From assembly GCA_049523555.1 (NCBI GenBank), contig JBEKMU010000013.1:2707-66706 (forward strand): a stretch of 64,000 bases of DNA, given 5' to 3'. A program made the translations under genes and the position numbers. This document shows positions 3,523 through 63,304 of the stretch, in pieces. Below the pieces are notes generated by a model. It was given only the letters and a program-made list of their open reading frames with translations. It was not told the DNA's origin and did no database searches. Origin of the DNA: Verrucomicrobiota bacterium (GTDB taxonomy: Bacteria > Verrucomicrobiota > Verrucomicrobiia > Limisphaerales > UBA11358). Each line of letters begins with the position of its first letter. Position 1 is the stretch's first letter.

Positions 3523-6500
3523 ATGAAACCGAAAATGCTCCTTCTGGTCATGATGGCAAGTGCCGGTACTATTCTCAGGCCACCCTTTGCGACGGCACAG
3601 CAGATTTTACATGGTCATGTGCCGGAGGCTGTGGTGCGCCTGCGGTTGCAGCCGATTGGCCGGCTTGCCGGCACGAATCATCTGTCACTGGCGATCGGAC
3701 TGCCGTTACGGAACCGGGAATCACTCACCAATTTGCTTCAGCAGCTTTATGATCCGGCCAGCACCAATTACCACCACTATCTTACACCGCAACAATTCAC
3801 CGAAGCCTTTGGTCCGACCGAACAGGATTATAAGGCGGTCATCGCTTTTGCAAAAGCGAACAACCTGACAGTGGCGACAACCCATCCCAACCGACTGTTG
3901 CTCGACGTGAGCGGAACGGTGGCGGAAATTGAGCAAGCGCTCAAGGTAACGCTGCGCGTTTACCAGCATCCGACGGAAAAGCGCACTTTTTACGCGCCGG
4001 ACACGGCGCCTTCACTCGCCTTGACCGTTCCGGTCTTGCACATCAGCGGCCTGGATAATTACGCGTTGCCGCATCCCCGGCTCAAGGCCAGCCATATTGC
4101 GAAAAACAACACCGCGTCGCCCAACACCGGTTCGGGACCTGACGGCTGCTATATGGGGAACGATTTCCGGGCCGCTTACGTTCCGGATTCGTCATTGACC
4201 GGTTCGGGACAGGTGGTCGGTTTGTTGCAGTTTGATGGATATACGGCCAGCGACATCATTTACTACGAGAATCTGGCCGGGCTGCCAAATGTTACATTGA
4301 CCAATGTGCTGTTGGACGAATTCGACGGCTACCCGACTGGTTATGGAGATATTGAGGTCTGTCTGGACATTGAAATGGCCATTTCGATGGCACCGGATTT
4401 ATCCCAGGTGATTGTTTATGAAGCGCCGAACGGCAGTCCGTTTGAGGACATCATGAACCGTATGGCCACGGACAACCTGGCCAGGCAGTTGAGTTGTTCA
4501 TGGTATATACCCGACGGTAGGCCCGATGCGACCGCCGACCAGATTTGGCAAGAGATGGCGGCGCAGGGCCAGTCATTTTTCAACGCGTCAGGTGACTACG
4601 GAGCCTATACCGGTTTGATTAGCTTTCCCGGTGACACGCCCTATATCACCCAGGTTGGCGGAACAACTTTGACGACGAGCGGTCCGGGCGGAGTCCGGCT
4701 GTCTGAAACCGTTTGGAACCGGAACAATGGCATCGCCAGCGGCGGCGGAATCAGCACGAGTTATCCAATTCCGGACTGGCAAGCAGGGCTCGACATGACA
4801 GCCTGTCAAGGCTCGGTGACGATGCGCAACACGCCGGATGTGGCGCTGACCGCTGACGATATTTACGTCCGAGCCGATGGTCAGGACTACTCTGTCGGCG
4901 GAACCAGTTGTGCCGCCCCATTGTGGGCGGGATTCATGGCCCTGGTCAACCAGCAGGTCGCCGCCTACGGCAGGCCGCCCGCCGGCTTCATCAACCCGGC
5001 CATCTATGCCCTGGCCAAAGGATCGTTTTATGGCGCCTGCTTTCATGACATCACCACCGGCAATAACACCAACAACAGCAGCCCAAATCTTTACTATGCC
5101 GTTCCCGGCTACGACCTCTGCACGGGTTGGGGCACGCCCAACGGCGCGAACCTCATCAACGCCCTGGCTCCGCCCGACTGGCTGGTTATTACTCCATCCT
5201 ACGGCTTCACTTCCAGCGGCAATCCTGGTGGGCCATTCTCCGTCAATTCACAGAGCTTGAACTTGACCAACGCAGGAACCAACCAGTTTGCCTGGTCTCT
5301 CAGCAATACTTCACCCTGGCTGAATGTCTCGACCAACGGAGGCACACTGACGCCGGGCGGAGCCTCAGCCACGGTGATGGTGAGCCTTAGCCCGGCGGCC
5401 AGCGACCTGCCCCCCGGCGTATACACCGCAACGCTCTGGTTCACCAACCTCGATGATTCAATCGGACAGGGTCGCACCTTTACTTTGATCGTGCTGGGCG
5501 CACCTATGATAGCTGTGCAGCCAAAGAATCAAGTGGCTGTAGCGGGTGGCACTGCAACTTTCACCATCAAAGTAACGGGTGCCACACCCTTGAGTTACAC
5601 CTGGCAGAGGAACGGCAGCTACATCCCTGGCGCGACCAATGCGATTTACACCAACAACAACGCGCAATTGTCCGACTCCGGCAGCCAGTTCTGTTGCATG
5701 GTCACCAACGCCTTTGGCGCCATCACCAGTTCGGTCGCGTCGTTGACAGTCTTCAGTCCTCCCTGGCACTTGTTTAGCGGATTCGATGGCGCCAATCCTG
5801 CCGGCGCTCTGGTGCTGGGCAGTGACGGCAACTTCTATGGCACGACCGAGGGCGGTGGGTTCTACGGCTGTGGAACCATATTCAGAATGACAACGAATGG
5901 GGAGTTGACCACCTTGGTCTCGTTCAACAACGCGAATGGAGTCTTTCCTGCAGCCGGTCTGGTGCAGGGCAGCGACGGCAACTTCTACGGCACCGCGGAA
6001 TACGGCGGAGCCTACAGCTATGGAACCATTTTCAGAATGACTGCCAATGGCGCGCTGACCACCCTGGTTTCGTTCAATGGCACGAATGGTTCAATACCCC
6101 AAGCCGTTCTGGTGCAGGGCAGCGACGGCAATTTTTATGGCACGACGTCTTATGGCGGAGCGGACTTTAACGGATCCGTGCAGAGCGGCAACGGCACCGT
6201 CTTTAGAATAACGCCCAACGGCCTGCTGACCACCCTGGTTCTGTTCGACATGACGAACACTGGCGCCGATCCCTGCGGTGGCCTAGTGCAGGCCGGTGAT
6301 GGGAATTTCTATGGCACAACCCTTTATGGCACAACCCTGAATGGACCAACCTACGGTACCGTATTCAGAATGACAACCAATGGCGTGTTGACAACGTTGG
6401 TTACGTTCAATGCGCCGTATGCGATGGATGGCGGCGCCCCCTATGCCGGCCTGGTGCAGGGCAATGACGGGAATCTCTATGGCACGACCGCGGCAGGCGG

Positions 6501-8574
6501 AGCCTACAACCTTGGAACCGTATTCAGAGTGACCACCAATGGCTTGCTGACCACCCTGGTTTCGTTCAATGGCACGAATGGGATGAAGCCCCAAGCCGCG
6601 CTGGTGCGGGGCAGCGACGGCAATTTCTATGGCGTCACGTCGTTCGGCGGACCCTACGGTGACGGAACTGTGTTCAGCGTGGCAAGCGATGGGACATTGC
6701 ACACGTTCCTCGTGTTCGCGGGCATCAATGGCTTCTGGCCCACAGCCGCGCTGGTGCAAGGCAGTGATGGCAATTTCTATGGCACGACTTTTTATGGCGG
6801 CGACGGCTACGACCCCCTGTTGGACTTTAGTGGCAATGGCATCGTCTTCCGCCTGGTGCCGCCTCCAAGCCCAAGCCCGCCGCTAATTGTCGTGCAACCT
6901 CTGAATCAGACCGCGGTGGTCGGCGACACCGCGTCCTTCTCCATCATCGCCATCGGCAGCGCAGCTTTGAGTTATTCCTGGATGCACCAAGGTGCCTTGG
7001 TTCCCGGTGCAACGAGCGCCACTTGCACGCTGACGAACGTTTCCGCGGCGGACGCGGGCAGTTACTACGCTGTCGTGACCAATGACTACGGCAGTGTCAC
7101 CAGCCGCGTAGCCACCTTAACCATAACCGCGTTGGTGGCGGCTGAACTCGGAGTTTACGGCCAGCAACTGGTGGTATTTTTTCCGACCACTACCAGAACC
7201 AATTATACGCTGCAAATCACCACCAATCCAGCTTCCGGCAATTGGGTGACGGTCACCAACGGCATTCCCTTGAGCGGCTTGGAAATTGACAGCGTCCCCG
7301 GCCCAGCCTTTTTCCGGTTTAGCCGCGGTAGGCCAAGCGTAACATGTCTTGCTGCCGGCTATTCCCACAGCCTGTTTGTGAAACACGACGGCAGTCTGTG
7401 GGCCATGGGCAACAACAGTTGCGGCCAGTTGGGCAACGGTACTTACAACAGCACCAACCTCCCCGAGGAAATTGTGGCCGACAACGTCATGGCAATGGCC
7501 GGCGGTTGGACACATAGTCTATTTGTGGAACGCGACGGCAGTTTGTGGGGTATGGGCTGCAACACTTTTGGCCAGTTGGGCAACGGCGCTTTCAGCACCG
7601 ACACCCCCGAGGAGATTGTGACCACCAACGTCACAGCCATTGCCGCCGGCGGTTTGCATACCCTGTTTATCAAGGGCGATGGCAGCCTGTGGGCCATGGG
7701 TTGGAACCAGTCTGGCCAGTTGGGTGACGGAACTTACATTAACACCAACCGTCCCGAACAAATTGTGACCAGTGATGTTATGGCCATCGCCGGCGGATAT
7801 TGTCACAGTCTTTTCCTGAAGAGTGACGGCAGCCTGTGGGCCATGGGCAACAACAGTTGCGGCCAGTTGGGTGACGGAATTTACATTAACACCAACCACC
7901 CCGAACAGATCGTGGCCAGCAATGTTATGGCCATTGCCTGCGGATATAGCCACAGCCTTTTCTTGAAGAGTGACGGCAGCCTGTGGGCCATGGGCGATAA
8001 TTCTTACGGCGAATTGGGCGACGGCTCTTACAACCGGACGAACCGGCCCGAGCAGATCGTTGCCAGCAATGTCACAGCCATTGCTGCCGGAAATGGTTTC
8101 AGTTTGTTTTCCGAGCGCGACGGCAGCCTGTGGGCCATGGGTTGGAACCAGTCTGGCCAGTTGGGTAACGGAACTTACATCAACACCAACCGCCCCGAAC
8201 AGATCATGGCCAGCAATGTTATGGCCATTGCCTGCGGATATAGCCACAGCCTTTTCCTGAAGAGTGACGGCAGCCTGTGGGCCATGGGCGATAATTCTTA
8301 CGGCGAATTGGGCGACGGCTCTTACGCCACCAACTTCCCCTACGGAATCAACCACCCCGAGGAGGTTGTGGGCATTAGTGTACCCGTGCTGGGTATTGGT
8401 ACCTGGAGCAATCAGCCGGTGGTTTTTTACCCGGTCGCCACCGCCACCAATGATTTGCTGCTGATTACGACCAATCTCACATCCGGCAATTGGGCGCCAT
8501 TCAGCACCGGCATTCCCTTCAGCATCCTGCAAATCCCCAACGTCCCCAGCCCCTTCTTTTTCCGGCTGTATTAA
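3523..8574 (+). CDS. Secreted multidomain protein: pro-kumamolisin/sedolisin (S53) peptidase + BACON/Ig-like domains + 7x Gloeo_Verruco repeats + Ig-like + 7x RCC1 repeats
   Basis: Signal peptide MKPKMLLLVMMASAG...ATAQQ. An S53 pro-domain and catalytic domain with the serine motif VGGTSCAAPLWAG (about nt 4890-4930). Two Ig I-set-like modules (PxIxVQPxNQxAVxGxTAxF...YxxVVTNxxGSVTS). Seven xGSDGNFYGTT...GTIFRMTxNGxLTTLVSFN units. Seven HSLFxKSDGSLWAMGxNxxGQLGDG units. Confidence 0.9.
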   Translation: MKPKMLLLVMMASAGTILRPPFATAQQILHGHVPEAVVRLRLQPIGRLAGTNHLSLAIGLPLRNRESLTNLLQQLYDPASTNYHHYLTPQQFTEAFGPTEQDYKAVIAFAKANNLTVATTHPNRLLLDVSGTVAEIEQALKVTLRVYQHPTEKRTFYAPDTAPSLALTVPVLHISGLDNYALPHPRLKASHIAKNNTASPNTGSGPDGCYMGNDFRAAYVPDSSLTGSGQVVGLLQFDGYTASDIIYYENLAGLPNVTLTNVLLDEFDGYPTGYGDIEVCLDIEMAISMAPDLSQVIVYEAPNGSPFEDIMNRMATDNLARQLSCSWYIPDGRPDATADQIWQEMAAQGQSFFNASGDYGAYTGLISFPGDTPYITQVGGTTLTTSGPGGVRLSETVWNRNNGIASGGGISTSYPIPDWQAGLDMTACQGSVTMRNTPDVALTADDIYVRADGQDYSVGGTSCAAPLWAGFMALVNQQVAAYGRPPAGFINPAIYALAKGSFYGACFHDITTGNNTNNSSPNLYYAVPGYDLCTGWGTPNGANLINALAPPDWLVITPSYGFTSSGNPGGPFSVNSQSLNLTNAGTNQFAWSLSNTSPWLNVSTNGGTLTPGGASATVMVSLSPAASDLPPGVYTATLWFTNLDDSIGQGRTFTLIVLGAPMIAVQPKNQVAVAGGTATFTIKVTGATPLSYTWQRNGSYIPGATNAIYTNNNAQLSDSGSQFCCMVTNAFGAITSSVASLTVFSPPWHLFSGFDGANPAGALVLGSDGNFYGTTEGGGFYGCGTIFRMTTNGELTTLVSFNNANGVFPAAGLVQGSDGNFYGTAEYGGAYSYGTIFRMTANGALTTLVSFNGTNGSIPQAVLVQGSDGNFYGTTSYGGADFNGSVQSGNGTVFRITPNGLLTTLVLFDMTNTGADPCGGLVQAGDGNFYGTTLYGTTLNGPTYGTVFRMTTNGVLTTLVTFNAPYAMDGGAPYAGLVQGNDGNLYGTTAAGGAYNLGTVFRVTTNGLLTTLVSFNGTNGMKPQAALVRGSDGNFYGVTSFGGPYGDGTVFSVASDGTLHTFLVFAGINGFWPTAALVQGSDGNFYGTTFYGGDGYDPLLDFSGNGIVFRLVPPPSPSPPLIVVQPLNQTAVVGDTASFSIIAIGSAALSYSWMHQGALVPGATSATCTLTNVSAADAGSYYAVVTNDYGSVTSRVATLTITALVAAELGVYGQQLVVFFPTTTRTNYTLQITTNPASGNWVTVTNGIPLSGLEIDSVPGPAFFRFSRGRPSVTCLAAGYSHSLFVKHDGSLWAMGNNSCGQLGNGTYNSTNLPEEIVADNVMAMAGGWTHSLFVERDGSLWGMGCNTFGQLGNGAFSTDTPEEIVTTNVTAIAAGGLHTLFIKGDGSLWAMGWNQSGQLGDGTYINTNRPEQIVTSDVMAIAGGYCHSLFLKSDGSLWAMGNNSCGQLGDGIYINTNHPEQIVASNVMAIACGYSHSLFLKSDGSLWAMGDNSYGELGDGSYNRTNRPEQIVASNVTAIAAGNGFSLFSERDGSLWAMGWNQSGQLGNGTYINTNRPEQIMASNVMAIACGYSHSLFLKSDGSLWAMGDNSYGELGDGSYATNFPYGINHPEEVVGISVPVLGIGTWSNQPVVFYPVATATNDLLLITTNLTSGNWAPFSTGIPFSILQIPNVPSPFFFRLY
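5773..6862 (+). repeat. Seven tandem Gloeo_Verruco (GloVer, choice-of-anchor type) repeats inside the giant CDS
   Basis: I counted seven occurrences of G(S/N/G)DGN(F/L)YG, each followed by G(T/I)(I/V)F(R/S). The period is about 50 aa. Confidence 0.8.
7345..8370 (+). repeat. Seven tandem RCC1-type propeller blades inside the giant CDS
   Basis: Seven DGSLW(A/G)MG...GQLG(D/N)G units with a period of about 49 aa. Some pairs are nearly identical at the DNA level. Confidence 0.85.
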
Positions 8575-12870: not shown

Positions 12871-15800
12871 ATGAGTGAAATTCCCAAGGCCTACGAACCG
12901 CAAGCAGTCGAAGACAAGTGGTACCAGTTCTGGCTCGACCAGAAGTGCTTCGTCGCCGATGCGCAGTCGAAGAAGCCTGCTTATTCCATTGTCATCCCGC
13001 CGCCGAATGTCACCGGCATGCTCACGATGGGCCACGTCCTCAACAACACCATCCAGGACATCCTCGCCCGCAAAGCGCGCATGGACGGCAAGGAGGTCCT
13101 CTGGCTGCCCGGCACCGATCACGCCGGCATTGCCACGCAGACGGTGGTGGAACGCACGTTAAAAAAGGCCGGTGAAATCAAACATCGTGACGATTTGGGC
13201 CGCGAAAAATTCCTCGAACGCGTCTGGCAATGGAAGGAAAAGCACGGCGGTATCATCATCCAGCAATTGAAGAAGCTCGGCGCGTCGTGCGACTGGACGC
13301 GTGAACGGTTCACCATGGACCCGGAATATTCGCGCTGTGTCCAGAAGGTATTTGTGGAGCTTTACAAAAAGGGCCTTATCTATCGCGGCAAGCGCATGGT
13401 GAACTGGGACCCTGCCGCCCGCACCGCGCTCTCCGACGAGGAAGTCGAAATGATCGAGGAAAAGGGGCACCTCTGGCACATCAAATATCCGCTGCTCGAC
13501 GACCAGGGCCAACCCAAGGCTGATGAATTCGTGGTCGTCGCCACGACCCGCCCGGAAACGATGCTCGGCGACGAAGCGGTGGCAGTGAATCCGTCCGACC
13601 CGCGTTACACGAAGCTGGTCGGGCGGAAGGTGCTGTTGCCGCTCCAGAACAAGCCCATCCCGGTCATTGCTGACGCACTGGTGGACCCGAAGTTCGGTAC
13701 CGGTTGCGTGAAGGTGACGCCCGCACACGATCCGGCCGACTACGAGATAGCGCTACGGCACAACCTGCCGATCACCGTCGTCATCGGCCTCGACGGCCAC
13801 ATGACGCCGGCCGCCGGCAAGGAGTTTGAGGGCTTGAACCGTTCGAAAGTGCGCCAGGCCGCAGTCGAGAAACTGACCGAGCAGGGCTTGTTGCTGAAGA
13901 CCGAGGATTACGTCCACAATGTCGGTTACAGCCAGCGCAGCCATGTGCCCATCGAACCGTATCTGAGCGAGCAATGGTTTTTGAAATATCCAAGCGTGGA
14001 AAAATCGCGGGCGTGCGTGGAGCAAGCCGACGTCGGAGGGGCGAGTTCCACGAGCCCCACTTCAAGTCAGGGCGTCGCAGAGCTCCGCCCTCCGAAAGAT
14101 GGGAAAATGCAGTTCCATCCGCAGCGCTGGGCGAAGGTCTATGACCACTGGATGGGCAACATCCAGGACTGGTGCATCAGCCGCCAGCTTTGGTGGGGAC
14201 ACCGGATTCCGGTGTGGACTCTGGCGTGGAATGACGAATGTGCCGGCGGTGCAATTGAAGAGGAAGAATTTTTGATGGGTATCAATGCATGGGTGAAGGA
14301 AGTCGGTTTAGTTGGCAAACTTGAAATTCACATCGCCCGTGATTTGCCCTATACAGCTCGCATTTTGACATTGGACTCGGAAGCGGATGCTCGTCTGGCA
14401 GAACTGGCTGAAGTCGCAAGCAAACATGATGAACAAGCTTCGTCTGAGTATGAAGCGCGCTTTACGACAGAAGCGAAGATTCTTTACACGATTGATACAC
14501 TCACCCAAGACCCCGATGTGCTCGATACGTGGTTCAGCTCCTGGCTCTGGCCGTTTGCGACGATGGGCTGGACGGGTGACAAATCCCAGGACTCCAACAA
14601 CCCAACACTCCGGGCCTTTTATCCGACCACCGACCTGGTCACCGGGCCGGACATCATTTTCTTCTGGGTCGCGCGCATGATTATGGCGGGCTACGAATTC
14701 ATGGGGGATTTGCCGTTCCGGAACGTCTATTTCACCGGCATCATCCGCGACAAGCAGGGCCGCAAGATGTCCAAGAGCCTCGGCAATTCGCCTGACCCGC
14801 TCGACCTCATCGCCAAGTTCGGCGCCGATGCGCTCCGGTTCGGCACCATGCGCAGCGCGCCGCTTGGTCAGGACATTTTGTTCGACGAACAAAACGTCGA
14901 GTTGGGCCGCAATTTCTGCAACAAGCTCTGGAACGCCTGCCGCTTCCGCCAGATGGTCGGCAGTGCCGACTTCCCAATTCAGGGGGAGATTAATCCAAAA
15001 CTATTAACGTCAGACGACAAATGGATTTTGCTCAAGCTCGATCAGGCGATTCGTGAAATGAACACCGCATTCGCCGAATACAAATTCAGCGACGCGACGG
15101 CGACGCTCTACCGCTTTTTCTGGAGCGAGTATTGCGATTGGTACGTCGAGGCGAGCAAAGCTGTGCTGTCGCACAGCGTTGAACCGTTAAAACGCGAAAC
15201 CGTTGAATCGGCCACCGGTTCAACGATTCAACCTTTCAACGATTCAACGGCTCGCAAAGCGAATACTCTGGCCGTGATTGATTTTGTTCTCTCGCATACG
15301 CTGCGGCTGTTTCATCCGTTTCTGCCGTTCATCACGGAGGAACTCTGGCATGGGATGGGTTATGCCGAGGACATGCCACAAGATCAGGGCGGCAAAACCA
15401 TCATGTTCGCGCCCTGGCCGAAGCCGCTCGGCGACGATTTCAAATCACACTACGACCTGACCGAACAGGACGAAAAACACATCGAAGCCCGCAACGAATT
15501 TGTCACGCAAGGCCGCAATCTGCGCCGCACGGCGAACATCGCCGCGAACAAGAAGGTCAAATTCATTCTCAAACCGGCGCGCGAATTGCCGGCTCACGAC
15601 CTCGAAGTGCTAAGGCTGTTGCTGAATGCCGAGGCGGTCGAGGTGAACACGAATTTTCAGCCGGCAAAAAACACGATGACGGTGCGCACCGCGTTGGGCG
15701 ATTTGTTTCTGCCGCTGGAAGGTTTGATTGACATCGAGGCGGAAAAAGCGCGGCTGAAAAAGGAGTTGGAAAAAATCGAGGCCGAGACCGCCAAAGTCGA

Positions 15801-15933
15801 ACAGAAGCTGGCCAACCCGAACTTCACGCAAAAGGTTCCAGCGCAAGTCTTGGAGGAACACAAGCAGCGTCTCGCCGAGTGGCATGGCAAACGCGACCAC
15901 GTGAAATCCGCACTGGCCGCCCTGCAAGGTTGA
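12871..15933 (+). CDS. valS: Valine--tRNA ligase
   Basis: MSEIPKAYEPQAVEDKWYQFW start, the class I HIGH-type motif PPPNVTGMLTMGHV and KMSKS (RKMSKSLGN). A C-terminal coiled coil is present. The ATG at 12871 lies inside ORF 12697..15933. Confidence 0.95.
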   Translation: MSEIPKAYEPQAVEDKWYQFWLDQKCFVADAQSKKPAYSIVIPPPNVTGMLTMGHVLNNTIQDILARKARMDGKEVLWLPGTDHAGIATQTVVERTLKKAGEIKHRDDLGREKFLERVWQWKEKHGGIIIQQLKKLGASCDWTRERFTMDPEYSRCVQKVFVELYKKGLIYRGKRMVNWDPAARTALSDEEVEMIEEKGHLWHIKYPLLDDQGQPKADEFVVVATTRPETMLGDEAVAVNPSDPRYTKLVGRKVLLPLQNKPIPVIADALVDPKFGTGCVKVTPAHDPADYEIALRHNLPITVVIGLDGHMTPAAGKEFEGLNRSKVRQAAVEKLTEQGLLLKTEDYVHNVGYSQRSHVPIEPYLSEQWFLKYPSVEKSRACVEQADVGGASSTSPTSSQGVAELRPPKDGKMQFHPQRWAKVYDHWMGNIQDWCISRQLWWGHRIPVWTLAWNDECAGGAIEEEEFLMGINAWVKEVGLVGKLEIHIARDLPYTARILTLDSEADARLAELAEVASKHDEQASSEYEARFTTEAKILYTIDTLTQDPDVLDTWFSSWLWPFATMGWTGDKSQDSNNPTLRAFYPTTDLVTGPDIIFFWVARMIMAGYEFMGDLPFRNVYFTGIIRDKQGRKMSKSLGNSPDPLDLIAKFGADALRFGTMRSAPLGQDILFDEQNVELGRNFCNKLWNACRFRQMVGSADFPIQGEINPKLLTSDDKWILLKLDQAIREMNTAFAEYKFSDATATLYRFFWSEYCDWYVEASKAVLSHSVEPLKRETVESATGSTIQPFNDSTARKANTLAVIDFVLSHTLRLFHPFLPFITEELWHGMGYAEDMPQDQGGKTIMFAPWPKPLGDDFKSHYDLTEQDEKHIEARNEFVTQGRNLRRTANIAANKKVKFILKPARELPAHDLEVLRLLLNAEAVEVNTNFQPAKNTMTVRTALGDLFLPLEGLIDIEAEKARLKKELEKIEAETAKVEQKLANPNFTQKVPAQVLEEHKQRLAEWHGKRDHVKSALAALQG

Positions 15934-15966
15934 TTCTGAACTGAACGTTGGCCGTGGTAAACATAG

Positions 15967-16066
15967 CGGCAGAGGCCCGCCGCACTCCAAGACCTGTCGG
16001 AAATTCCGACGGTCCCCCCCCCGCATCGCGCATCAGCGTCTTGGACTGCGCCAGCCCCCTGGCGCT
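15967..16066. repeat. ~100-bp composite inverted repeat downstream of valS
   Basis: Arms GCGGCAGAGGCCCGCCGCACTCCAAGAC and GTCTTGGACTGCGCCAGCCCCCTGGCGC. An inner hairpin GTCGGAAATTCCGAC and a C9 tract are also present. Confidence 0.65.
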
Positions 16067-16162
16067 TTGGGAGGTTGTTATGGCAATTTCACCCGGATTT
16101 TGTGCGGATTTCAAAACCACTCCTCGACGGCGTTGCAGTTCTTCGCTTAAGCTCGCGCCCGC

Positions 16163-17887: not shown

Positions 17888-18736
17888 ATGAAAGCCCTAT
17901 TATTGAATAAATCACTGGCCGTGGCCGTCAAAGCCGCGCGCGCCGCGGGGAAACTCATGCGCGACAACTGGCACGCGCCCAAGCGCGTCAACGCCACCGA
18001 TGCCCACGACATCAAGCTTGAACTCGATGTGCGCAGCCAGAAACTCATCGAAAAAAACCTGTGTGCCGCGTTTCCAAAAATTCCTTTGCTCGGCGAGGAA
18101 GGTTGCACGGGCGACATGAACGCCGAATATCGCTGGGTGGTGGACCCGATTGACGGCACGGTGAATTATTTCCTTGGCATTCCGCACGCTGCCGTATCTA
18201 TCGCTTTGCAGCGGTGGGGCGAGAGTCTCTCGAGCCCCGACTCAAAAACAAAAAAATCAGGGCTCGACAGAGTCTCGCCCCACCAAAATTTTGAAACAAT
18301 CCTCGGAGTAATCTATGGTCCGTTCACGGATGAACTCTGGACGGTGATTCGCGGCGGGCCGACGCGATTGAATGGGTGCGTCGTCCGTGTCAGCCGCCGC
18401 CAAAACCTGAAGGAGGCCGTCGTGGCCATGGGCTTTTCCAAGAGCAAACAAAACCTGGCAAAAAGCCTGCCGCACCTGAACCGGCTTTCCCGGCGCACGT
18501 TGAAAATGCGCATCATGGGTTCGGCAGCGCTCGAACTTGCCTACGTCGCCTCCGGCCGCCTCGACGCCTACATCGAGCGCACCATCAATTTGTGGGACAT
18601 CGCGGCGGGCGCATTGATGGTTGAATGTTCCGGCGGCGAATTTTACACCCGGCCCGCGCCGGGCGGGAAACTCCGGATGATCGCCAGCAACGGCCTGCTC
18701 CGCCGGAAACTTCAGCTTGGAAACTTGCTGAAGTGA
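17888..18736 (+). CDS. Inositol monophosphatase family protein (SuhB-like), with a repeat-derived internal insert
   Basis: Motifs LLGEEG and WVVDPIDGTVNYFLGIPHAAVSIAL, and a C-terminal WDIAAGALMV. Confidence 0.85.
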   Translation: MKALLLNKSLAVAVKAARAAGKLMRDNWHAPKRVNATDAHDIKLELDVRSQKLIEKNLCAAFPKIPLLGEEGCTGDMNAEYRWVVDPIDGTVNYFLGIPHAAVSIALQRWGESLSSPDSKTKKSGLDRVSPHQNFETILGVIYGPFTDELWTVIRGGPTRLNGCVVRVSRRQNLKEAVVAMGFSKSKQNLAKSLPHLNRLSRRTLKMRIMGSAALELAYVASGRLDAYIERTINLWDIAAGALMVECSGGEFYTRPAPGGKLRMIASNGLLRRKLQLGNLLK

Positions 18737-24645: not shown

Positions 24646-25347
24646 ATGAATGCTCAAGGTAACAGTACGCTTGTGAACGTTGACGGGGTGGGAAAAGTTT
24701 TTCATCGCGGCTCGGAAGACATCCACGTTCTGGCGGACCTGCATTTGCAGGCATCCGCCGGCGAATTTCTCGCGTTGATGGGGCCGTCGGGTTCGGGCAA
24801 AACCACGCTGTTGAACCTGATTGGCGGGCTCGACCGCCCGACAAAAGGCGCGGTCACGGTCGCCGGCGAACGCCTCGATCAATTGTCCGATCGCCGGCTG
24901 GCCGCGTGGCGCGCACGGCACATCGGCTTCGTTTTCCAGCTTTACAATCTGATGCCGATGCTGACGGCGGAGCGCAACGTGGAACTGCCGTTGTTGCTGA
25001 CGCATCTTTCCCGGACGGAGCGGCAGAAACACGTGGAAACGGCGCTCGCGGTGGTGGGGCTGTCGCATCGCGCGAAGCATTATCCGCGCACGCTTTCCGG
25101 CGGCGAACAACAGCGTGCGGGCATCGCCCGCGGTATTGTCACCGACCCGACGCTGCTGCTTTGCGACGAGCCGACGGGCGATTTGGACCGCAAGGCCGGC
25201 AACGAAATCCTGGACTTGCTTCAGGCGCTGAACCGGGAGCACGGCAAGACCATCATCATGGTCACGCACGATCCGCACGCCTCGGCGCGCGCGTCGCGGA
25301 CGGTCTATCTGGACAAAGGACAATTGAGCAACGAACCGGTCAAATGA
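24646..25347 (+). CDS. ABC transporter ATP-binding protein (MacB/LolD-like)
   Basis: Walker [10 protein letters not shown], signature LSGGEQQR and Walker [13 protein letters not shown]. Confidence 0.95.
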
Positions 25348-25352
25348 AGACG

Positions 25353-25450
25353 AATGGAGTAATGGAGTGTTGGGGCGATGGAGTATTGGGTTCACGCGCA
25401 AGCATGTCAGGCCTTTCCATCACTCCATCACTTCAATACTCCACCATCCC
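25353..25450. repeat. AATGGAGT-type inverted-repeat hairpin element
   Basis: Left arm AATGGAGTAATGGAGTGTTGGGGCGATGGAGTATTGGG. Right arm CATCACTCCATCACTTCAATACTCCACCATCCC. It belongs to the same family as 37952..38030. Confidence 0.8.
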
Positions 25451-33296: not shown

Positions 33297-34229
33297 ATGT
33301 CCTCAACCCTGAAATCATTGCGGGCTTTGTCCGACCCGACGCGGCTGCGCATCGTGGCGCTGCTGGAGCGGGATGAATTGTCCGTGCACGAGCTGCAGGA
33401 AATCACGCGGCTCGGCCAGTCACGCATTTCCACGCATCTCGGCCTGCTGCAGGATTCGGAACTGGTACAATCGCGGCGCGACGGCAAACGGACGTTCTAC
33501 AAGCTGAACCCGGCTGCGGATGGCGCCGCGCGCGAATTCATCCAACTGGCCATTCGCGGCGCGAAGGAACTGCCCGAGCACGCAGGCGACCAGATCAATC
33601 TCAAGCGCATCCTCGGCCGCCGGCGCGAACAAGCACAGGTCTATTTCAATCAGGTTGCCGGCCGGTTCGACCGCGTTTATGGTCCCGGCCGTTCGTGGCA
33701 GGCCTTTGGGCATCTGCTGTTGCGGATTTTGCCGCCGCTGGTCGTGGCCGACCTCGGCGCGGGCGAAGGCCTGTTGAGCGAACTGCTCGCGCGCCGCTGC
33801 AAAAAAGTCATCGCCGTGGACAACTCGGAAAAGATCGTCGCCTTCGGCGCGGCGAAGGCAAAAAAGAACGGGTTGAAAAATCTGGAGTTCCGCCTCGGCG
33901 ATTTGCAGAACCCACCCATTGAAGCCGGCAGCGTTGACCTGGTGATTTTGAGCCAAGCATTGCATCACGCCGAAGCCCCGTCCGCGGCAATTGCCGCCGC
34001 AGCCAAAATCCTTCGCCCGCACGGGCAAATCATCATCCTCGATTTGCTCAAGCACAATTTTGAGAAGGCGCACGGGCTTTACGGCGACCGTTGGCCGGGC
34101 TTTGCCGAGAGCGATTTGCAGCGCTGGCTGGAGGAGGCGGGTTTCAGGAAGATCGAAATCAGTGTCGTCGCCCGCGAGGAATCGCCGCCGCATTTTCAGA
34201 CCATTCTGGCGGGCGGGGAAAAAACGTAG
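33297..34229 (+). CDS. ArsR-family wHTH fused to a class I SAM-dependent methyltransferase-like domain (SahR-like regulator)
   Basis: LSDPTRLRIVALLERDELSVHELQEITRLGQSRISTHLGLLQDSELV (ArsR HTH). VVADLGAGEGLLSELLARRCKKVIAVDNS (SAM-binding motif I). The ATG at 33297 lies inside the TTG-started ORF 33270. Confidence 0.8.
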   Translation: MSSTLKSLRALSDPTRLRIVALLERDELSVHELQEITRLGQSRISTHLGLLQDSELVQSRRDGKRTFYKLNPAADGAAREFIQLAIRGAKELPEHAGDQINLKRILGRRREQAQVYFNQVAGRFDRVYGPGRSWQAFGHLLLRILPPLVVADLGAGEGLLSELLARRCKKVIAVDNSEKIVAFGAAKAKKNGLKNLEFRLGDLQNPPIEAGSVDLVILSQALHHAEAPSAAIAAAAKILRPHGQIIILDLLKHNFEKAHGLYGDRWPGFAESDLQRWLEEAGFRKIEISVVAREESPPHFQTILAGGEKT

Positions 34230-34292
34230 GACAGGCGTCGCGCCTGTCTCCATTTTCTCCTAACGTTGAGACAGGCTGGAAGCCTGTCCTAC
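34226..34292. repeat. 67-bp REPIN-like inverted doublet (GTAGGACAGGC...GCCTGTCCTAC)
   Basis: Arms GTAGGACAGGCGTCGCGCCTGTCTC and GAGACAGGCTGGAAGCCTGTCCTAC with a 17-nt spacer. It exactly fills the convergent gap between the regulator gene and leuS. The regulator's TAG stop lies inside the terminal GTAG. Confidence 0.85.
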
Positions 34293-34295
34293 ACT

Positions 34296-37136
34296 TTACG
34301 CCACGGCGATGTTCACCAGTTTTTTCGGCACGACGATGACTTTCCTGATCGTCTTGCCGGCCAGGAACGGCTTCACTTTTTCAGAGGCGCGAGCAGCGGC
34401 TTCGAGCGCGGCATTGTCAGCGTTGGCCGGGACTTTGATGACGTCGCGCAACTTGCCGTTCACCTGCACGGGAATTTCCAGTGTGTCCTCGACGAGCAAC
34501 GTTGCATCAAACTTTGGCCAGCAGGCGTAAGCCAGCGCGATTCGATGTTGGATGTTCGATGTTGGATGTTCGATGTTCAGCTTTTCCCACAACTCCTCCG
34601 CCAAGTGCGGCGCGAAAGGCTGGAGTAGAATCAAAAAATCGCGCAGCACCACAACCGGCTTTGTTTCCCAGGTGATGGCGTCGTTTACAAAGACCATCAG
34701 CGCCGAAATAGCCGTGTTGAAACGAAAGCCGTCCAAATCCGCCGTCACCTTTTTGATGCAGGCGTGCAACGTTTTAAGCTGCTCGCGCGCCGGTTCGACA
34801 TCTTTAATCGAGCCGCTGAGTTGGATTTTTTTGAGCAGTTCTGGGCCTTTCTGCGGCTGAATTGTTTCCGCCTGCTCGAATTCCGTTTCAGATTTTTCGT
34901 CCACGAACAGCCGCCAGACGCGGCCGAGGAAACGATAAACGCCTTCGACGCCCTTGGTGCTCCACGGCTTGACCATTTCAAGCGGGCCCATGAACATTTC
35001 GTAAAGACGCAACGCATCCGTGCCGAAATCTCTCAAAACATCATCGGGGTTCACCACGTTGCCGCGCGATTTGGACATTTTCTGGCCGTCCTCGCCGAGA
35101 ATCAGTCCTTGATTGACGAGCTTGAAGAACGGTTCGGGCGTCGAGACGTAGCCGAGGTCGAACAAGACCTTGTGCCAGAACCGTGCGTAAAGCAGATGTA
35201 ATACGGCGTGCTCGGTACCGCCGACATATAAATCCACGCCTGGAGTCGTGGACTTGGAGTCTGGGGTCTGGGATTTCGGTTCTTGGGAACCCATCCAATA
35301 TTGCTCCGCCTCCTTGCCGACGAACGATTGCGCATTCTTCGCGTCGAGGTAACGCAAATAATACCAGCAACTGCCGGCCCATTGCGGCATGGTGTTCGTC
35401 TCGCGCTGTGAGCCGTCGGGCAGATTCACCCAATCCTTCGCGCGCGCGAGCGGCGGCTGGCCATCAGGAGTGGGTTTGTAATCGTCAAGCGGCGGCGGCA
35501 AGACCGGCAGCGCGCTTTCGGGCAGGGCTTCGTGATACAAATTTCCAGCGGCATCCTTTTTCCAAATAATCGGGAAAGGCTCGCCCCAGTAACGTTGCCG
35601 GCTGAACAGCCAGTCGCGGAGTTTGTAATTGATGGTTTTCTTTCCAAGGCCTCTCGATTCGAGCCAAGCGGTGATTTTCTTTTTGGCTTCGGGCGTGGGC
35701 AGGCCGGTGATGGAAATCTCCGGCCCAGTGGAATTCACCGAAGTGCCGTCGTCCACGAATCCGCGCCAATCTGTCTTCTGGTCGGGTGGCTGAACGACTT
35801 GAATAATGGGCAGGTTGAATTTGGTGGCGAACTCGAAGTCGCGCGTGTCATGTGCCGGCACGGCCATGATGGCACCGGTCCCATAGCTGGCGAGAACGTA
35901 ATCAGCAATCCAAATGGGAATTTTTTCTCCGTTGACCGGGTTGATGACGTAAGCACCGGTGAAGACGCCAGTTTTCTCTTTGGCCAACTCGGTGCGTTCG
36001 AGGTCGGACTTCTTGGCAACGTCGGTTTTATACTTGGCAATCGCGGCGCGCAGTTCCGCAGTGGTAACTTGGTCAACGAGTTTGTGTTCCGGCGCGAGCA
36101 CCATGTAAGTTGCGCCGAAGAGCGTATCGGGTCGCGTAGTAAAAACTTCGATGAAGTTTGCAACGTCTGAAAACTGAACATTTGAAACTTGAAATCTCAC
36201 TGTGGCACCTTCGCTGCGACCAATCCAGTTCCGTTGCATTTCCTTGAGCGAATTGCTCCAGTCAATCGTGTCGAGGTCGGTGAGAAGTTTCTCGGCATAG
36301 GCGGTGATGCGGAGCATCCATTGGCGCATCGGTTTGCGGGTGACGGGAAATCCGCCGACTTCACTCTTGCCGTCCACAACTTCTTCGTTGGCCAGCACGG
36401 TGCCAAGTTGCTCGCACCACCAGACGGGTTGTTCGCTGACGTAGGCGAGGCGTTTTGAGTCGCGGTAGGCGCGGCGGCGGGCTTCGAGGTCTTGTTCGTC
36501 AGTAGGGCCGACCTGCCGGTCGGCCTGGACGCGCGGCAGCGCGTCCCTACCGGAAAGTTCCGCCGGATACTTCAGCGTCTCAATCGGCTCGGCCTTGTTC
36601 GTTTCCGGATTGAACCACGAGTTGTAAAGCTTCAGGAAAATCCACTGGGTCCACTTGAAATAATCGGGGTCGGTGGTGGCGAGTTCGCGCGACCAATCGT
36701 AACTGAAGCCAAGCGATTGAATCTGGCGCTTGAACGTGGCGATGTTGGCCTCGGTGGTCTGGCGGGGGTGCAGGCCGGTCTTGACGGCATATTGCTCGGC
36801 GGGCAGGCCGAAGGCGTCCCAGCCCATCGGATGCAGGACGTTGAAGCCGAGCGCGCGCCGGTAACGGGCGAGGATGTCCGTGGCGGTGTAACCTTCCGGA
36901 TGCCCAACGTGCAAACCCGCGCCGCTAGGATACGGAAACATGTCGAGGATGTAAAATTTGGGTGGCAACTGCGTGGCGGCCACCTTGCCGGAAAGACGAT
37001 GGCGTTTGGCGAAAGGGTGCCCGTCCGGGAGGACTTCGCCCGGATTAAACGCGCGAAAGGTCTGCTGTTCGTTCCAAAATTGCTGCCACTTAGGTTCAAT
37101 CAAATGAAACGGATATTGCCTGCGGCTGCTCGACAT
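34296..37136 (-). CDS. leuS: Leucine--tRNA ligase
   Basis: [23 protein letters not shown] (HIGH region), KMSKSRGN, and the CP1 editing domain. It is 946 aa, longer than usual because of several inserts. Confidence 0.97.
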
Positions 37137-37194: not shown

Positions 37195-37953
37195 CTAATG
37201 TTTGACCGGTAAACTTCGCCAGACGAGTCGCAACCCTTCGAGCGTCAAGTTGGGTTCGACGGCTGAAATTTCCGGCAAACGTGCGGCAATTAATCCGGCG
37301 TAACCGCCCGTCGCCACCACCGGCAAATGTTTCACCTGCAATTCGCGCTTCAACTCGGCGATCAATTCACGAACCAGCCCGCGATAACCATGCACCGCGC
37401 CGACGAGCATCGCTTGTTCAGTGCTCCTGCCAATGCTCGTTTTGACTTCGCGGATTTTGATGCGCGGCAGCAACGCCGTTTTCTCGTGCAGATAATCCGT
37501 CATCGCCGCCAGCCCCGGCGCAATGATGCCCCCCGCGTAATTGCCCGCGCGATTGACGACATCAAACGTCACCGCCGTTCCGAAATCCACCACCACCACC
37601 GGCGCGCCAAAGCGCTTGCGCGCAGCCACGGCGTTTGCCAGGCGATCCTCCCCGATTGTGTCCGGCTTCGGATAATCAATGCCCACGCCGCAAAGTGTTT
37701 TTCGCGTGAGTTCGAATGCGTTCAAATTCCAAAGTCGGCGGACGGTTTTGCGGACGTGCGGTGTCGCGCGCGGCACCACGCTGCATAGCGCAGCGCCCTT
37801 CAAACTCGCGCGGCCAACAAATTTTTTCGCCAATTTCTCCGCCGCGCCCTTGAACCAGAACGATGTGGGCATGTTTGTGTGCTTCATCACACACCGGTCG
37901 TTGGCCAGACCGAGATGCGTGTTCGTGTTGCCGATGTCGAAAAGCAAAAGCAT
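37195..37953 (-). CDS. coaX: Type III pantothenate kinase
   Basis: [16 protein letters not shown] start, then [12 protein letters not shown] and ATGGYA. The ATG at 37953 lies inside ORF 37195..38043, whose 5' part is repeat-encoded. Confidence 0.9.
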
Positions 37954-38030
37954 GGAGTAATGGAGTAATGGAGTAATGGAGTGTTGGAAATCTTTTTCGG
38001 TGCCGCACCACTCCACCACTCCATCACTCC
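37952..38030. repeat. AATGGAGT-type inverted-repeat hairpin element (second copy)
   Basis: ATGGAGTAATGGAGTAATGGAGTAATGGAGTGTTGG ... CCACTCCACCACTCCATCACTCCG. It fills the birA-coaX gap. Confidence 0.8.
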
Positions 38031-38032
38031 GT

Positions 38033-39010
38033 TCATTTCTCAAGCGTTACATCCCCACCCGTGATGCGTTCCAAATGTCCATGTTCGGTCCGCAGCAACA
38101 GCGCGCCATCGTCATCCAGCGACTCGGCCCGACCGCTCACGCGCCGCCCGCCGATTTGAATCGTCACCGCGCGGCCAATTGTCGTGCAATGCGCTTCCCA
38201 CTCGTCAGCCACGTCTGCAAAAAAATCGCCACAGACGCGCGCGTAATCACAGTCGAGTTCGCGCAAAATGGCCGTTGCCAGCTCCGGACGGGAAATGGTT
38301 TTGCCGGCTTCAATTCTCAACGACGTCGCCGTCCTGCGCAATTCCGCCGGAAATTCATTCACGCTCAGGTTCACATCCACGCCGATGCCGAGGATGACGT
38401 GCTTGACGCAGTCCAATTCCGCGCTCATTTCCGTCAGAATGCCCGCGACTTTCCTGCCGCGAATCAAAATGTCGTTCGGCCATTTGATTTCCGGGTTCAG
38501 GCCGGTTTCGGATTGAATCGCACGCCGCAGAGCCATGGCGGAAGCAACGGTGAGTCGCGTTGTTTCCTGCGGGCGCAAATCCGGTCGCAGCAAAATGGAA
38601 AACCAAAGGCCTTTTCGCGCCGGCGACATCCACGCGCGACCGAGCCGGCCCCGGCCTTTCGTCTGCGATTCCGCAAAAACGACGGCGCCTTCCTTCACAC
38701 CGTCGCGCGCGAGCTTTTCAATCACGTCGTTGGTCGAAGTCGTCTGTTCAAACACGCGGATGTCGCGCCCGACGATTTTCGTTTTGCCGAGGCGCGCGAG
38801 CAAATCGTCCGCGTACAGCGCGTCGGGAACGCTCACGAGCCGGTAGCCGAAGTGCGGGCTGGCCTCGATGTCGTAGCCAAGCTGGCGCAACTCCTCGATG
38901 TGTCCCCAAATCGCCGCGCGCGTGACGCCCAGTTGCTCGGCGATTTCCGCACCCGACACCCCGTCGGTATTCGCGCGCAACGCGGTAAGAATTTTTGCGT
39001 CCGTCGTCAT
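38033..39010 (-). CDS. birA: Bifunctional biotin--[acetyl-CoA-carboxylase] ligase / biotin operon repressor
   Basis: N-terminal HTH (SGAEIAEQLGVTRAAIWGHIEELRQLGY) and the ligase motif ESQTKGRGRLGRAWMSP. Confidence 0.92.
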   Translation of the reverse strand: MTTDAKILTALRANTDGVSGAEIAEQLGVTRAAIWGHIEELRQLGYDIEASPHFGYRLVSVPDALYADDLLARLGKTKIVGRDIRVFEQTTSTNDVIEKLARDGVKEGAVVFAESQTKGRGRLGRAWMSPARKGLWFSILLRPDLRPQETTRLTVASAMALRRAIQSETGLNPEIKWPNDILIRGRKVAGILTEMSAELDCVKHVILGIGVDVNLSVNEFPAELRRTATSLRIEAGKTISRPELATAILRELDCDYARVCGDFFADVADEWEAHCTTIGRAVTIQIGGRRVSGRAESLDDDGALLLRTEHGHLERITGGDVTLEK

Positions 39011-39016
39011 TTTACA

Positions 39017-39084
39017 ATCGTCCTCGTCGTCGTCCTCGTTCTCGAAATCGAATCATCGAGGAGAAGGACGAGAATGAGGACGAT
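39017..39084. repeat. GTCCTCGT-type inverted-repeat hairpin element
   Basis: ATCGTCCTCGTCGTCGTCCTCGTTCTCG ... CGAGGAGAAGGACGAGAATGAGGACGAT. It fills the nadC-birA gap. Confidence 0.8.
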
Positions 39085-39088
39085 AAAA

Positions 39089-40024
39089 TCATGTTTCAAA
39101 ATCCAAACCGATGTCCACCGCGCGCGCGGAATGTGTGAGCGCGCCGACGGAAATGAAATCCACGCCGGTCCCGGCAATCGCGCGGACATTCGCCAGATTC
39201 ACGCCGCCGCTGGCCTCGGTCTTCATGCGGCCTTTGACTTTCTGCACCGCCAGCCGCAGTTGAATCGGGTTCATGTTGTCGAGCAAAATGATGTCCGCCC
39301 ACGCATCGGCGGCCTGCTCGACCTGCTCCAGCTTGTCGGCTTCGACCTCAATTTTCAGTTTCGGAAACTTTTCGCGCGCGCGCTGGACGGCGGCGGCGAT
39401 GGCATTCGGTTTTTCACCGCGCAGCGCCGCGAGGTGATTGTCCTTGATGAGCACCATGTCGAACAGGCCGGTGCGATGGTTGTGCCCGCCACCGCACGCG
39501 ACGGCGTATTTCTCGAAACGCCGCCAGCCGGGCGTGGTTTTGCGCGTGTCCAGAATCTGCGCGTGAGTTCCTTTGATGGCTTCGACAAATTGCGCAGTAA
39601 GCGTGGCGATGCCGGAAAGCCGCTGGACGAAATTCAACGCGACACGCTCGGCGCTCAAAAGGGCGCGGGCCGGGCCGGAAATTTTCAGCAAGGTTTCATT
39701 CTCACCGACATGTTGGCCGTCATTCGCCAGCCGCTCAATTTTGATTTCCCCTTCGGAGGGCGGAGTTCCACGACGCCCTGATTCATTTTGAGATTTTGGG
39801 GGCTCGCAGCGCTCGCCCCTCCGATTGATGAATTGTAAGACTTCGCAGAACGCAGCTTCGGCGAAGGCGAGTCCGGCCACGACGAGCGGTTCGCGCGCAC
39901 GCATGAGCGCTTTGGCCGTCGCGGTTGCGGGCACGATGGATAAAGTCGTGGCGTCACCGCTGCCGATGTCCTCGGCAAGGGCCAGCTTGACGGCCTGACG
40001 GATTTCTGCGGCGGACAATTCCAC
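39089..40024 (-). CDS. nadC: Nicotinate-nucleotide diphosphorylase (carboxylating)
   Basis: AEIRQAVKLALAEDIGSGDATT, LDTRKTTPGWR and IEVEADKLEQVEQAADAWADIILLDNM. The likely GTG start at 40024 gives M-ELSAAEI. The longest ORF reaches 40144 but would overlap the divergent gene. Confidence 0.85.
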   Translation of the reverse strand: MELSAAEIRQAVKLALAEDIGSGDATTLSIVPATATAKALMRAREPLVVAGLAFAEAAFCEVLQFINRRGERCEPPKSQNESGRRGTPPSEGEIKIERLANDGQHVGENETLLKISGPARALLSAERVALNFVQRLSGIATLTAQFVEAIKGTHAQILDTRKTTPGWRRFEKYAVACGGGHNHRTGLFDMVLIKDNHLAALRGEKPNAIAAAVQRAREKFPKLKIEVEADKLEQVEQAADAWADIILLDNMNPIQLRLAVQKVKGRMKTEASGGVNLANVRAIAGTGVDFISVGALTHSARAVDIGLDFET

Positions 40025-47426: not shown

Positions 47427-47847
47427 GACATGCTATCTAATCATTGTGCCAGGTTTCAGTCAATTCCGATTTGACAACCGAAAGGTTTTAATGCAAGTTT
47501 GGCCTGTAAGACACCCCGCTTCGGCGGTGGTGTCTTTTTTTATGCTGTATAATCCGAATCAAAGTTTCGCCTATCCTCAAACGGATAGCGGTGCTGGGGG
47601 CATGAACAACATTCTGTCTTTGCTGCAATCTCTGATGCAGATGAAAAACGCCCTTGGCGTTCAAAACCAGCCGATAAGTGCGGGGCGACCTGCGGGAGCA
47701 ATGAACAAACCAACATCAAATCAAGTTCCCGCCAGCTTTACTGACGATATGTTTGTTGGCGCATTAGGACAGCCAGCCTCGATAATGTCACCTGACGCGG
47801 TTGCTGCTTTAGGTGAGTACTTTGATTTCTGCTTCACGATTTGGATG

Positions 47848-47897
47848 GTAGGGCCGCGCTGCTGCGCGGCCTCGGACGACCAGCAGGTCGTCCCTAC
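47848..47897. repeat. 50-bp GTAG...CTAC double-hairpin REP-like element
   Basis: GTAG-GGCCGCGCTGCTGCGCGGCC-TC-GGACGACCAGCAGGTCGTCC-CTAC. Its architecture matches the element inside leuS at 36502..36550. Confidence 0.85.
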
Positions 47898-47971
47898 CAA
47901 CCAAAACAGCTTACTACCACCCATTCGCCTGAATTGACTTGGGGTGTTCCGGCGGCTAGTCTCCGTGTTTA

Positions 47972-63251: not shown

Positions 63252-63304
63252 GTTGCCGGCTTGACTGGCCGATGAAACCCTTTAGCCTAGCCAACGCTCC
63301 GGCT

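Follow-up and report, generated by a model that had tools for sequence, protein, structure and literature searches.

A palindromic doublet within valS and nadC of a Limisphaerales bacterium is probably a REPIN with a cognate RAYT transposase

A 64,000-nt stretch of a Verrucomicrobiota genome of the order Limisphaerales (contig JBEKMU010000013.1, positions 2,707 to 66,706; hereafter the window) carries two similar palindromic doublets within coding sequences, one in the valine-tRNA ligase gene valS and the other in the quinolinate phosphoribosyltransferase gene nadC. How did one kind of DNA element come to be translated within two unrelated enzymes, and what is maintained there, the DNA or the peptide? 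We consider it very likely that the two are copies of a single family of REPINs, that is, inverted doublets of repetitive extragenic palindromic (REP) sequences, moved by a REP-associated tyrosine transposase (RAYT) and inserted in frame in genes.

A dispersed doublet family and its putative transposase

The letters of the 63-nt valS element described in an initial annotation of the window were present, but at 14033-14095, 10 nt upstream of the position given there (14043-14105). Its reading frame and its peptide (VGGASSTSPTSSQGVAELRPP, codons 14032-14094 of the valS open reading frame, ORF) were as described, as were the coordinates (39753-39824), peptide and frame of the nadC copy. The two copies have the same two arm types in the same orientation, with the GGGGC/GCCCC arm (type A) first and the GGGCG/CGCCC arm (type B) second along the coding strand, and are read in different codon phases (phase 1 in valS, phase 2 in nadC), both of which the initial annotation had recognized. 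Four occurrences of the arm motif were counted in the window, with 0.46 expected, and none of 100 shuffles gave as many. Coordinates and letters are collected in Table 1.

Each arm is 26 nt long. Its TCGGA tag is unpaired, and the 5-bp stem that comes next is followed by a tandem G.A/A.G and by a G-C pair that closes a loop of 5 nt; the commonest loop sequence is TTCCA, then CTCCG, then CTCTG. For covariation, we collected 142 arms that fitted the pattern with four stem positions left free (G or C). Both variable stem pairs were Watson-Crick in 138 of them (65 CG/CG, 56 GC/GC, 17 CC/GG). Among unique arm sequences, 30 of 34 were complementary, whereas shuffles averaged 11.2 and never exceeded 22; in a relaxed arm set CG, GC, AT and TA were all found at one stem position. 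The tandem G.A/A.G showed no variation among exact-pattern arms and hardly any in the relaxed set. This covariation in the stem indicates that each arm forms its own hairpin. Single arms were predicted by ViennaRNA to fold as a tag and a 5-bp stem, the valS left arm as .....(((((..((...))..))))). As single-stranded DNA, the valS doublet had predicted energies of -17.2/-17.9 kcal/mol (z = -3.9/-4.1); the nadC doublet folded more weakly (z = -1.3/-1.8). Stem mismatches (26 G.T versus 17 A.C) were not decisive as to which strand folds. All six frames of the arms are free of stop codons.

One scan of species-representative genomes yielded at least 114 arm loci. Among the matches listed, 76 of 80 loci were in metagenome-assembled genomes (MAGs) of Verrucomicrobiota, Verrucomicrobiia or Limisphaerales from peat, soil and similar habitats, none was labelled Rickettsiales, and single MAGs had more than 10 arm loci (for example, CAWDPX01 and CAYMCQ01); the window itself has two doublets in 64 kb. 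A scan of viral contigs for arms gave no match, leaving a phage vector unsupported. Rfam at gathering thresholds detected only a tRNA (63305-63375) over the window and no family matching the element. TCGGA arms also occurred on contigs binned as Dongiaceae, Chthoniobacterales and Candidatus Acidoferrum (L052, L064, L072, L073), and the 'Acidoferrum' MAG (P0047) encodes a Limisphaerales-like ValRS as well; these contigs and that of the P0047 MAG are probably mis-binned.

The sampled loci contained 250 arms, which formed 92 inverted doublets measuring 59-123 nt between the outer ends of their arms; 66 arms were unpaired by the doublet criterion, some of them at contig ends or beside a RAYT gene. 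With genes called by a simple codon-usage caller trained on the same loci (82% coding), 43 doublets were well within ORFs, 43 were intergenic and six lay across ORF ends. Pfam domains were detected in 28 of 30 host ORFs analyzed, and at least 17 have a domain that extends across the insert or lies on both sides of it. The intragenic hosts include BioF, HemL, a U32 peptidase, PrmC, protoporphyrinogen oxidase, KsgA, MetH, an FtsJ-type methyltransferase, a HisC-like aminotransferase, ABC-F proteins, DpnI and PheT. All three codon phases are in use (21/10/12), resulting in the recurrent peptides SEGRVPRAP, GGASSTSP and RRGELCEP. Many extragenic doublets lie a few tens of nt from the 3' end of a gene, with flanking genes that are convergent in 18 cases, unidirectional in 21 and divergent in two; these copies look like classic REPs. 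The flanks often have T before the element and A after it. A count of doublet lengths modulo 3, proposed in the initial annotation as a check, did not discriminate: there was no enrichment overall (38/35/19 for residues 0/1/2), and the lengths of intragenic copies were only somewhat enriched in multiples of three (21/12/10). Arm-to-arm length is uninformative in this respect because the real insertions carry a few extra flanking nucleotides.

A candidate transposase gene was found between such arms in related genomes. In L048, inverted arms (4040-4065 and 4614-4639) bracket an ORF of 175 aa (4076-4603), which scored 83.3 bits (cut-off 80, E 1.5e-23) with the NCBIfam model NF047646, 'REP-associated tyrosine transposase', and matched E. 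coli TnpA-REP (PDB 4ER8) with E 3e-7 and with the H-x-H and Y..NP motifs aligned. Unlike NCBIfam and PDB, the Pfam Y1 transposase model gave no match to this ORF. Its homologues in L027 and L112 have the same arms on both sides. A protein search with the RAYT gave about 1,300 relatives, several of which are called RayT at the source. We fetched the loci of five relatives with 64-79% identity on long contigs from independent metagenomes (L197-L201), and all were bracketed by these arms or close variants, so that arms flanked the RAYT gene in 8 of 8 loci examined (L048, L027, L112, L197-L201). The genomic neighbourhood of the RAYT gene differed in each genome examined. Because related RAYT genes are flanked by the same arms or close variants, we take the element to be a REPIN with a cognate RAYT. 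Variant arms accompany the more distant RAYT homologues of L199 and L201, with a 6-nt loop in L199 and in the upstream arm of L201 and a TCGGGA or CGGGA tag; the tags in L199 face the RAYT gene instead of pointing outward.

The initial annotation had argued that the DNA is the mobile or selected unit. In support of this view, one family is read in three phases in unrelated proteins to give unrelated peptides, has copies outside genes, and has arms that flank a RAYT gene in relatives. In the mechanism that we propose, the element would be a non-autonomous REPIN, two inverted REP hairpins with a short spacer, moved in trans by a RAYT of the HUH/Y1 type. By analogy with E. coli TnpA-REP and IS200/IS605, the transposase may recognize the hairpin and the TCGGA tag on single-stranded DNA; we infer that this RAYT moves these elements. 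Limisphaerales-type ancestors would have gained one copy in a loop of ValRS and another between a helix and a strand of the N-terminal domain of NadC. The insertions may have been tolerated because the arms are stop-free, the residues they encode are small or flexible, and the inserted lengths keep the frame. Both would then have passed through speciation as translated sequence.

Host sites, empty sites and family turnover

The ValRS of the window is 100% identical to a public MAG protein (P0001). The same insert was found in 24 of 120 ValRS orthologs. Distant orthologs and seven close ones have an empty site, are 25 aa shorter and read ..AVEEGRI.FHP.. or ..SRAVVADGKMKFHP.. there. The real insertion in valS is 75 nt. 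As a refutation, the initial annotation had named conservation of the segment in ValRS of distant relatives without the palindrome. This check did not refute it: distant orthologs lacked the segment altogether, and the palindrome was present in all four orthologs that have the peptide and whose DNA was read. A sequence alignment to Thermus thermophilus ValRS (1GAX) places the insert between residues 363 and 373, directly ahead of the conserved ..FVPERW strand.

NadC has two main forms, 28 aa apart, an empty form of 283 aa (..FTELSTAIKIERL..) and a filled form of 311 aa, and the real insertion is 84 nt. Most of the 120 NadC homologs listed have the insert, and the filled set includes forms with a shortened spacer, with the right arm only, with decayed arms or with a nested second insertion. 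In all variants of 299, 305, 307, 308, 312 and 332 aa, the downstream domain is in frame. The same-site insert was seen at the DNA level in the genomes of five other species (L009, L066, L093, L106, L110). The Pfam QRPTase_N match in NadC starts only downstream of the insert. In an AlphaFold2 model of NadC (mean predicted local distance difference test score, pLDDT, of 60), the insert (residues 65-91) is modelled as coil with pLDDT <50 between a helix and a strand; other segments score equally low.

At the ValRS loop, the TCGGA family is one of many. Close relatives have at least 12 palindromic doublet families there, including GTAG-tagged, GTGG-tagged (VGRASSRA...SPHQ in some relatives), CGGAGCGC-type and GGGAGCGC-type doublets, and 7 of 120 orthologs are empty. 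In L139, L163, L167 and L168, the TCGGA family itself is found here with a different phase and different spacers, which argues for repeated insertion. The nadC site has the TCGGA-type family alone, together with decayed forms and empty sites, and is consistent with one old insertion.

Vertical descent was tried as an account of the multi-family ValRS site, and the association between insert family and ValRS backbone proved to be only weak. The distance between ValRS sequences was 0.136 with the same insert family and 0.152 with different families (1 of 1,000 permutations), the nearest ValRS neighbour had the same family in 27 of 120 cases, and the ratio of same-family to different-family distances was 0.75-0.90 in every part of the alignment, including those adjoining the site.

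The valS pattern might instead reflect exchange of short cassettes between lineages, by homologous recombination or RAYT-mediated replacement, and not a single old vertical insertion. The weak tie to the backbone, even beside the site, and the copies of the same family that sit there with a different phase and different spacers are in its favour. So is a pair of mosaic valS genes (P0004/P0011; L195 68-2971 and L196 1501-4389, from two samples with consecutive ENA accessions), in which 1.6 kb on the 3' side are identical and 1.3 kb on the 5' side are about 10% diverged, with the breakpoint in the stretch coding for WCISRQLWWGHRIPVW; this mosaic could, however, be a chimera of metagenome assembly. 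The sharp end of nucleotide conservation at the element boundary, with variable codons upstream, is unlike the hitch-hiking expected of a recombined segment, and the nadC site, with one family and its decayed and empty forms, fits one old insertion. We regard cassette exchange as a possible but doubtful account of the valS pattern. A recent replacement in the P0004/P0011 pair was considered and rejected: the gene mosaic may come from natural recombination or from an assembly chimera, so it does not date any replacement.

Other parts of valS are variable too. A loop in the anticodon-binding domain (15150-15260) consists in the window of an inverted array of 8-nt units (CGTTGAAC... / ...TTCAACG) that encodes SVEPLKRETVESATGSTIQPFNDSTARK. 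Orthologs have 0 to 54 extra residues there, of many repeat types, which makes this loop a second insertion hot spot. Related arrays are found in an intergenic region of the window (57671-57755). A third hypervariable region (~14170-14520) follows WWGHRIPVW; it has about 100 aa in the window (TLAWNDECAGG...) and unrelated segments in relatives, some made of 8-nt tandem units (KSEVRSPKSEI from TCCGAAAT repeats) and some with a Pfam PF18798 domain.

The multi-family ValRS site may reflect landing-pad behaviour, cassette recombination or artefacts of metagenome assembly. A more speculative proposal, to which we give limited credence, is that intragenic REPINs are under purifying selection at the nucleotide level in essential genes and that permissive loops serve as landing pads, where a dozen RAYT-mobilized families replace each other or are swapped as cassettes. 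In ValRS, the first such loop might be at ~14013-14110, the second at ~15150-15260 and a third in the stretch after WWGHRIPVW, with the same reservation. If true, this would be a previously undescribed form of REPIN turnover and of protein-loop diversification.

Nucleotide conservation and alternative explanations

The initial annotation had suggested that only preservation of the frame is selected in the host gene. This did not hold, as the nucleotides of the element were far more conserved than the flanking synonymous sites in both genes. In three orthologous valS loci, 2 of 189 element positions differed, and none of the 63 third codon positions, compared with 30.7% of flanking third positions. 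This conservation ends right at the boundary of the element, and the codons directly upstream are free to vary. In nadC from six genomes, 5.4% of element positions differed (6.9% of third codon positions) compared with 23.5% of flanking third positions; by part, the figures were 3.1% for stems, 3.3% for the spacer, 6.7% for tags and 15.3% for loops. Other orthologous intragenic pairs were less extreme, with about 10% in the element and roughly 12-38% at well-aligned flanking third positions, flank comparisons misaligned by indels being left out.

The element nucleotides are thus held constant by selection or by some homogenizing process. The higher conservation of stems than of loops points to a constraint on the hairpin rather than on the peptide, and our best guess is that hairpin-level selection lies behind the constancy. 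A hairpin constraint leaves the conserved spacer unexplained, and so does gene conversion with other copies as donors, because their spacers differ.

These data also bear on the explanation that the inserts are lineage-specific functional loops of the proteins under selection for amino acids, with the palindrome and the likeness between valS and nadC as by-products. The peptide is indeed well conserved in the 24 ValRS orthologs and in most of the 120 NadC homologs listed, and first and second codon positions of the nadC insert vary less than those of its flanks. However, conservation within the element is equally strong at third codon positions and at the first two (third positions differ at 0/63 in valS and 6.9% in nadC, with 23-31% in the flanks), and stems are more conserved than loops. 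Moreover, the same DNA in three phases gives unrelated peptides in dozens of unrelated proteins, identical arms occur between genes and around a transposase gene, and the same ValRS site in close relatives holds quite different inserts or none. Selection for a protein loop is, therefore, very improbable as the origin of the inserts. We give hardly any weight to a miniature inverted-repeat transposable element (MITE), which would derive by deletion from an insertion sequence, have terminal inverted repeats, be moved by a DDE transposase and make target-site duplications: inverted arms at the ends of a 60-90 nt unit resemble terminal inverted repeats superficially, but each arm is a hairpin with internal covariation, single arms are common (the 66 unpaired ones), no target-site duplication is evident at the valS/nadC junctions or in the listed arm-locus flanks, and the sole gene type bracketed by the arms (8 of 8 loci) encodes a Y1/HUH RAYT of 160-190 aa and no DDE transposase.

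Several points weigh against a RAYT-moved REPIN family, the reading we prefer. Unlike classical RAYT-associated REPs, the arms lack the defining GTAG tag, and all of them carry TCGGA. Neither a transposition event nor an excision footprint nor a target motif came to light, and a search for a target-site duplication or a fixed target motif at the valS/nadC junctions and in the listed arm-locus flanks gave none that was convincing. In both genes, the inserted unit exceeds the element measured from arm to arm by 12 nt, and its ends could not be defined. The 64-kb window has no RAYT gene, so the pairing of arms and RAYT is established in related genomes only. A simple model of a tolerated passenger does not predict that the spacer should be so strongly conserved. 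Given the poor AlphaFold model, the placement of the NadC insert in a disordered loop is weakly supported. Finally, it is from the continuity of the ORFs that the inserts are presumed to be translated.

Known systems and other repeats in the window

In REPIN-RAYT systems, known from Pseudomonas and Enterobacteria, REP doublets that are described as extragenic are moved by RAYTs (PMC3116915, PMC3337134), and a structure (4ER8) is available for E. coli TnpA-REP (PMC3479197). The TCGGA family resembles them in its short, imperfectly palindromic arms, its inverted doublets with a spacer, its dispersed copies, the extragenic copies just downstream of genes, and the small HUH/Y1 gene between the same arms that scores above the NCBIfam RAYT cut-off and matches 4ER8. 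It differs in that the stem has only 5 bp plus the invariant tandem G.A/A.G, 43 of the 92 sampled doublets are intragenic, and the TCGGA-linked RAYT lies in a different neighbourhood in each genome examined.

Intragenic REPs, mostly dimers that encode 20-30 aa in frame in known proteins, were described by Di Nocera et al. in 2013 (PMC3733652). Their number was highest in the verrucomicrobium Opitutus terrae (about 70 mentions in a supplementary table), the hosts in other species included aminoacyl-tRNA synthetases, and different REPs were found at about the same recB site in two Xanthomonas species; the phenomenon was related to the Rickettsia palindromic elements (RPEs) (PMC3733652). The REP super-families of that study have GTAG or CGTC, or a listed degenerate form, unpaired at one end; REPs of the CGTC type have a stem of 8-9 bp that starts with A-T pairs and a CCA tail (PMC3733652). 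The present elements share with those dimers the in-frame insertion and the phylum. Unlike the two super-families, they have neither a GTAG nor a CGTC tag, the stem is of 5 bp of G/C with the tandem G.A, and the CCA tail is absent; unlike in Opitutus terrae, the hosts belong to a different order, as Limisphaerales-type MAGs. That study does not report nucleotide-level conservation of intragenic copies or many families alternating at one codon position (PMC3733652). In-frame intragenic insertion of REPs is, then, an already known kind of event, and the explicit link to a transposase is the addition made here.

RPE-1 and its relatives in Rickettsia are palindromic repeats inserted in frame, in various frames, in housekeeping genes, retained from one species to the next, presumably in permissive loops; a dedicated transposase was not found for RPE-4 and RPE-6, which are of the CGTC type (PMC3733652). 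The valS and nadC elements are likewise in-frame palindromic inserts, with empty sites in orthologs. They differ from RPEs in having an identified cognate RAYT, RPE-1 is longer, and the host is free-living and not an obligate intracellular alphaproteobacterium. No likeness to the RPEs was noted, no direct comparison of sequences having been made; the element behaves as an RPE does but is not classed among them.

In the IS200/IS605 family, a Y1 HUH transposase recognizes sub-terminal hairpins on single-stranded DNA and makes no target-site duplication. Its gene lies between asymmetric left and right ends, and insertion occurs beside a fixed target of 4-5 nt. In contrast, the TCGGA doublets are symmetric, and a fixed target was not found.

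In the sampled loci, a RAYT-linked family without the GTAG tag resides about as often inside core enzymes as outside genes. This extends the picture from Rickettsia RPEs and Opitutus to abundant Verrucomicrobia of peat and soil and supplies the missing link to a transposase. Such inserts inflate and fragment domain matches and make unrelated proteins look similar. Metagenome assemblies are probably broken by them as well, since many RAYT contigs reach only ~1 kb. Should the multi-family hot spot in ValRS and the nucleotide-level conservation prove genuine, two long-standing questions, whether hosts keep REPINs for a function and how REPINs choose their targets, would be testable in one system.

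Table 1. Repeats and host genes in the window
Feature	Position	Strand	Details
valS (valine-tRNA ligase) coding sequence, element host	12871-15933	+	1020 aa
Putative REPIN (inverted REP doublet) in valS	14033-14095, 63 nt	+	phase 1, (V)GGASSTSPTSSQGVAELRPP
valS left REP arm, type A: TCGGAGGGGCGAGTTCCACGAGCCCC	14033-14058, 26 nt	+	TCGGA tag, GGGGC/GCCCC stem, tandem G.A/A.G, TTCCA loop
valS element spacer: ACTTCAAGTCA	14059-14069, 11 nt		invariant among valS orthologs compared
valS right REP arm, type B: GGGCGTCGCAGAGCTCCGCCCTCCGA	14070-14095, 26 nt	-	minus-strand letters TCGGAGGGCGGAGCTCTGCGACGCCC, stem GGGCG/CGCCC
nadC (quinolinate phosphoribosyltransferase) coding sequence	39089-40024	-	311 aa; 100% identity to P0121
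Putative REPIN doublet in nadC	39753-39824, 72 nt	- (coding strand minus)	phase 2, RRGERCEPPKSQNESGRRGTPPSE
nadC type A arm, first in coding direction	39799-39824	-	minus-strand letters TCGGAGGGGCGAGCGCTGCGAGCCCC
nadC type B arm, second in coding direction	39753-39778	+	plus-strand letters TCGGAGGGCGGAGTTCCACGACGCCC; 90% match to valS B arm
Insert-spanning stretches			ValRS GGASSTSPTSSQGVAELRPPK; NadC SQNESGR
GTGG-tagged doublet (GGTGGGGCGAGAGTCTCTCGAGCCCC...)	18213-18284		in frame in inositol-monophosphatase-family gene; encodes RWGESLSSPDSKTKKSGLDRVSPHQ
Inositol-monophosphatase-family gene	17888-18733	+	Pfam Inositol_P match split in two
GTAG-tagged REP doublet	60613-60681		in frame in nuoG-like gene; encodes VGQASSLSPSKEKSETGKMPVLQ
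nuoG-like gene	59919-61664	-	
Intergenic sister of the GTAG-tagged doublet	34221-34297		79% identical
Further palindromic doublets	63140-63254, 47840-47905, 15962-16069, 57238-57328		other families, some GTAG-tagged
Tandem/inverted arrays of 8-nt units (GGAGTAAT and others)	25342-25443, 37932-38033, 39017-39084		
ORF with diverged tandem repeats	3523-8571	+	1683 aa; repeats at 5772-8565

The GTGG- and GTAG-tagged families of the window (Table 1) are elements distinct from the TCGGA family. With in-frame doublets of both and several intergenic doublets in the same 64 kb, intragenic palindromic repeats are a general trait of this genome and not peculiar to valS and nadC. Among the further palindromic doublets, one adjoins the tRNA gene and another lies just downstream of valS.

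One array of 8-nt units is between birA and nadC (39017-39084), and the other two abut or overlap gene ends. The 1683-aa ORF has diverged tandem repeats of 147-150 nt with 60-82% identity and the motif ..LVQGSDGNFYGTT...

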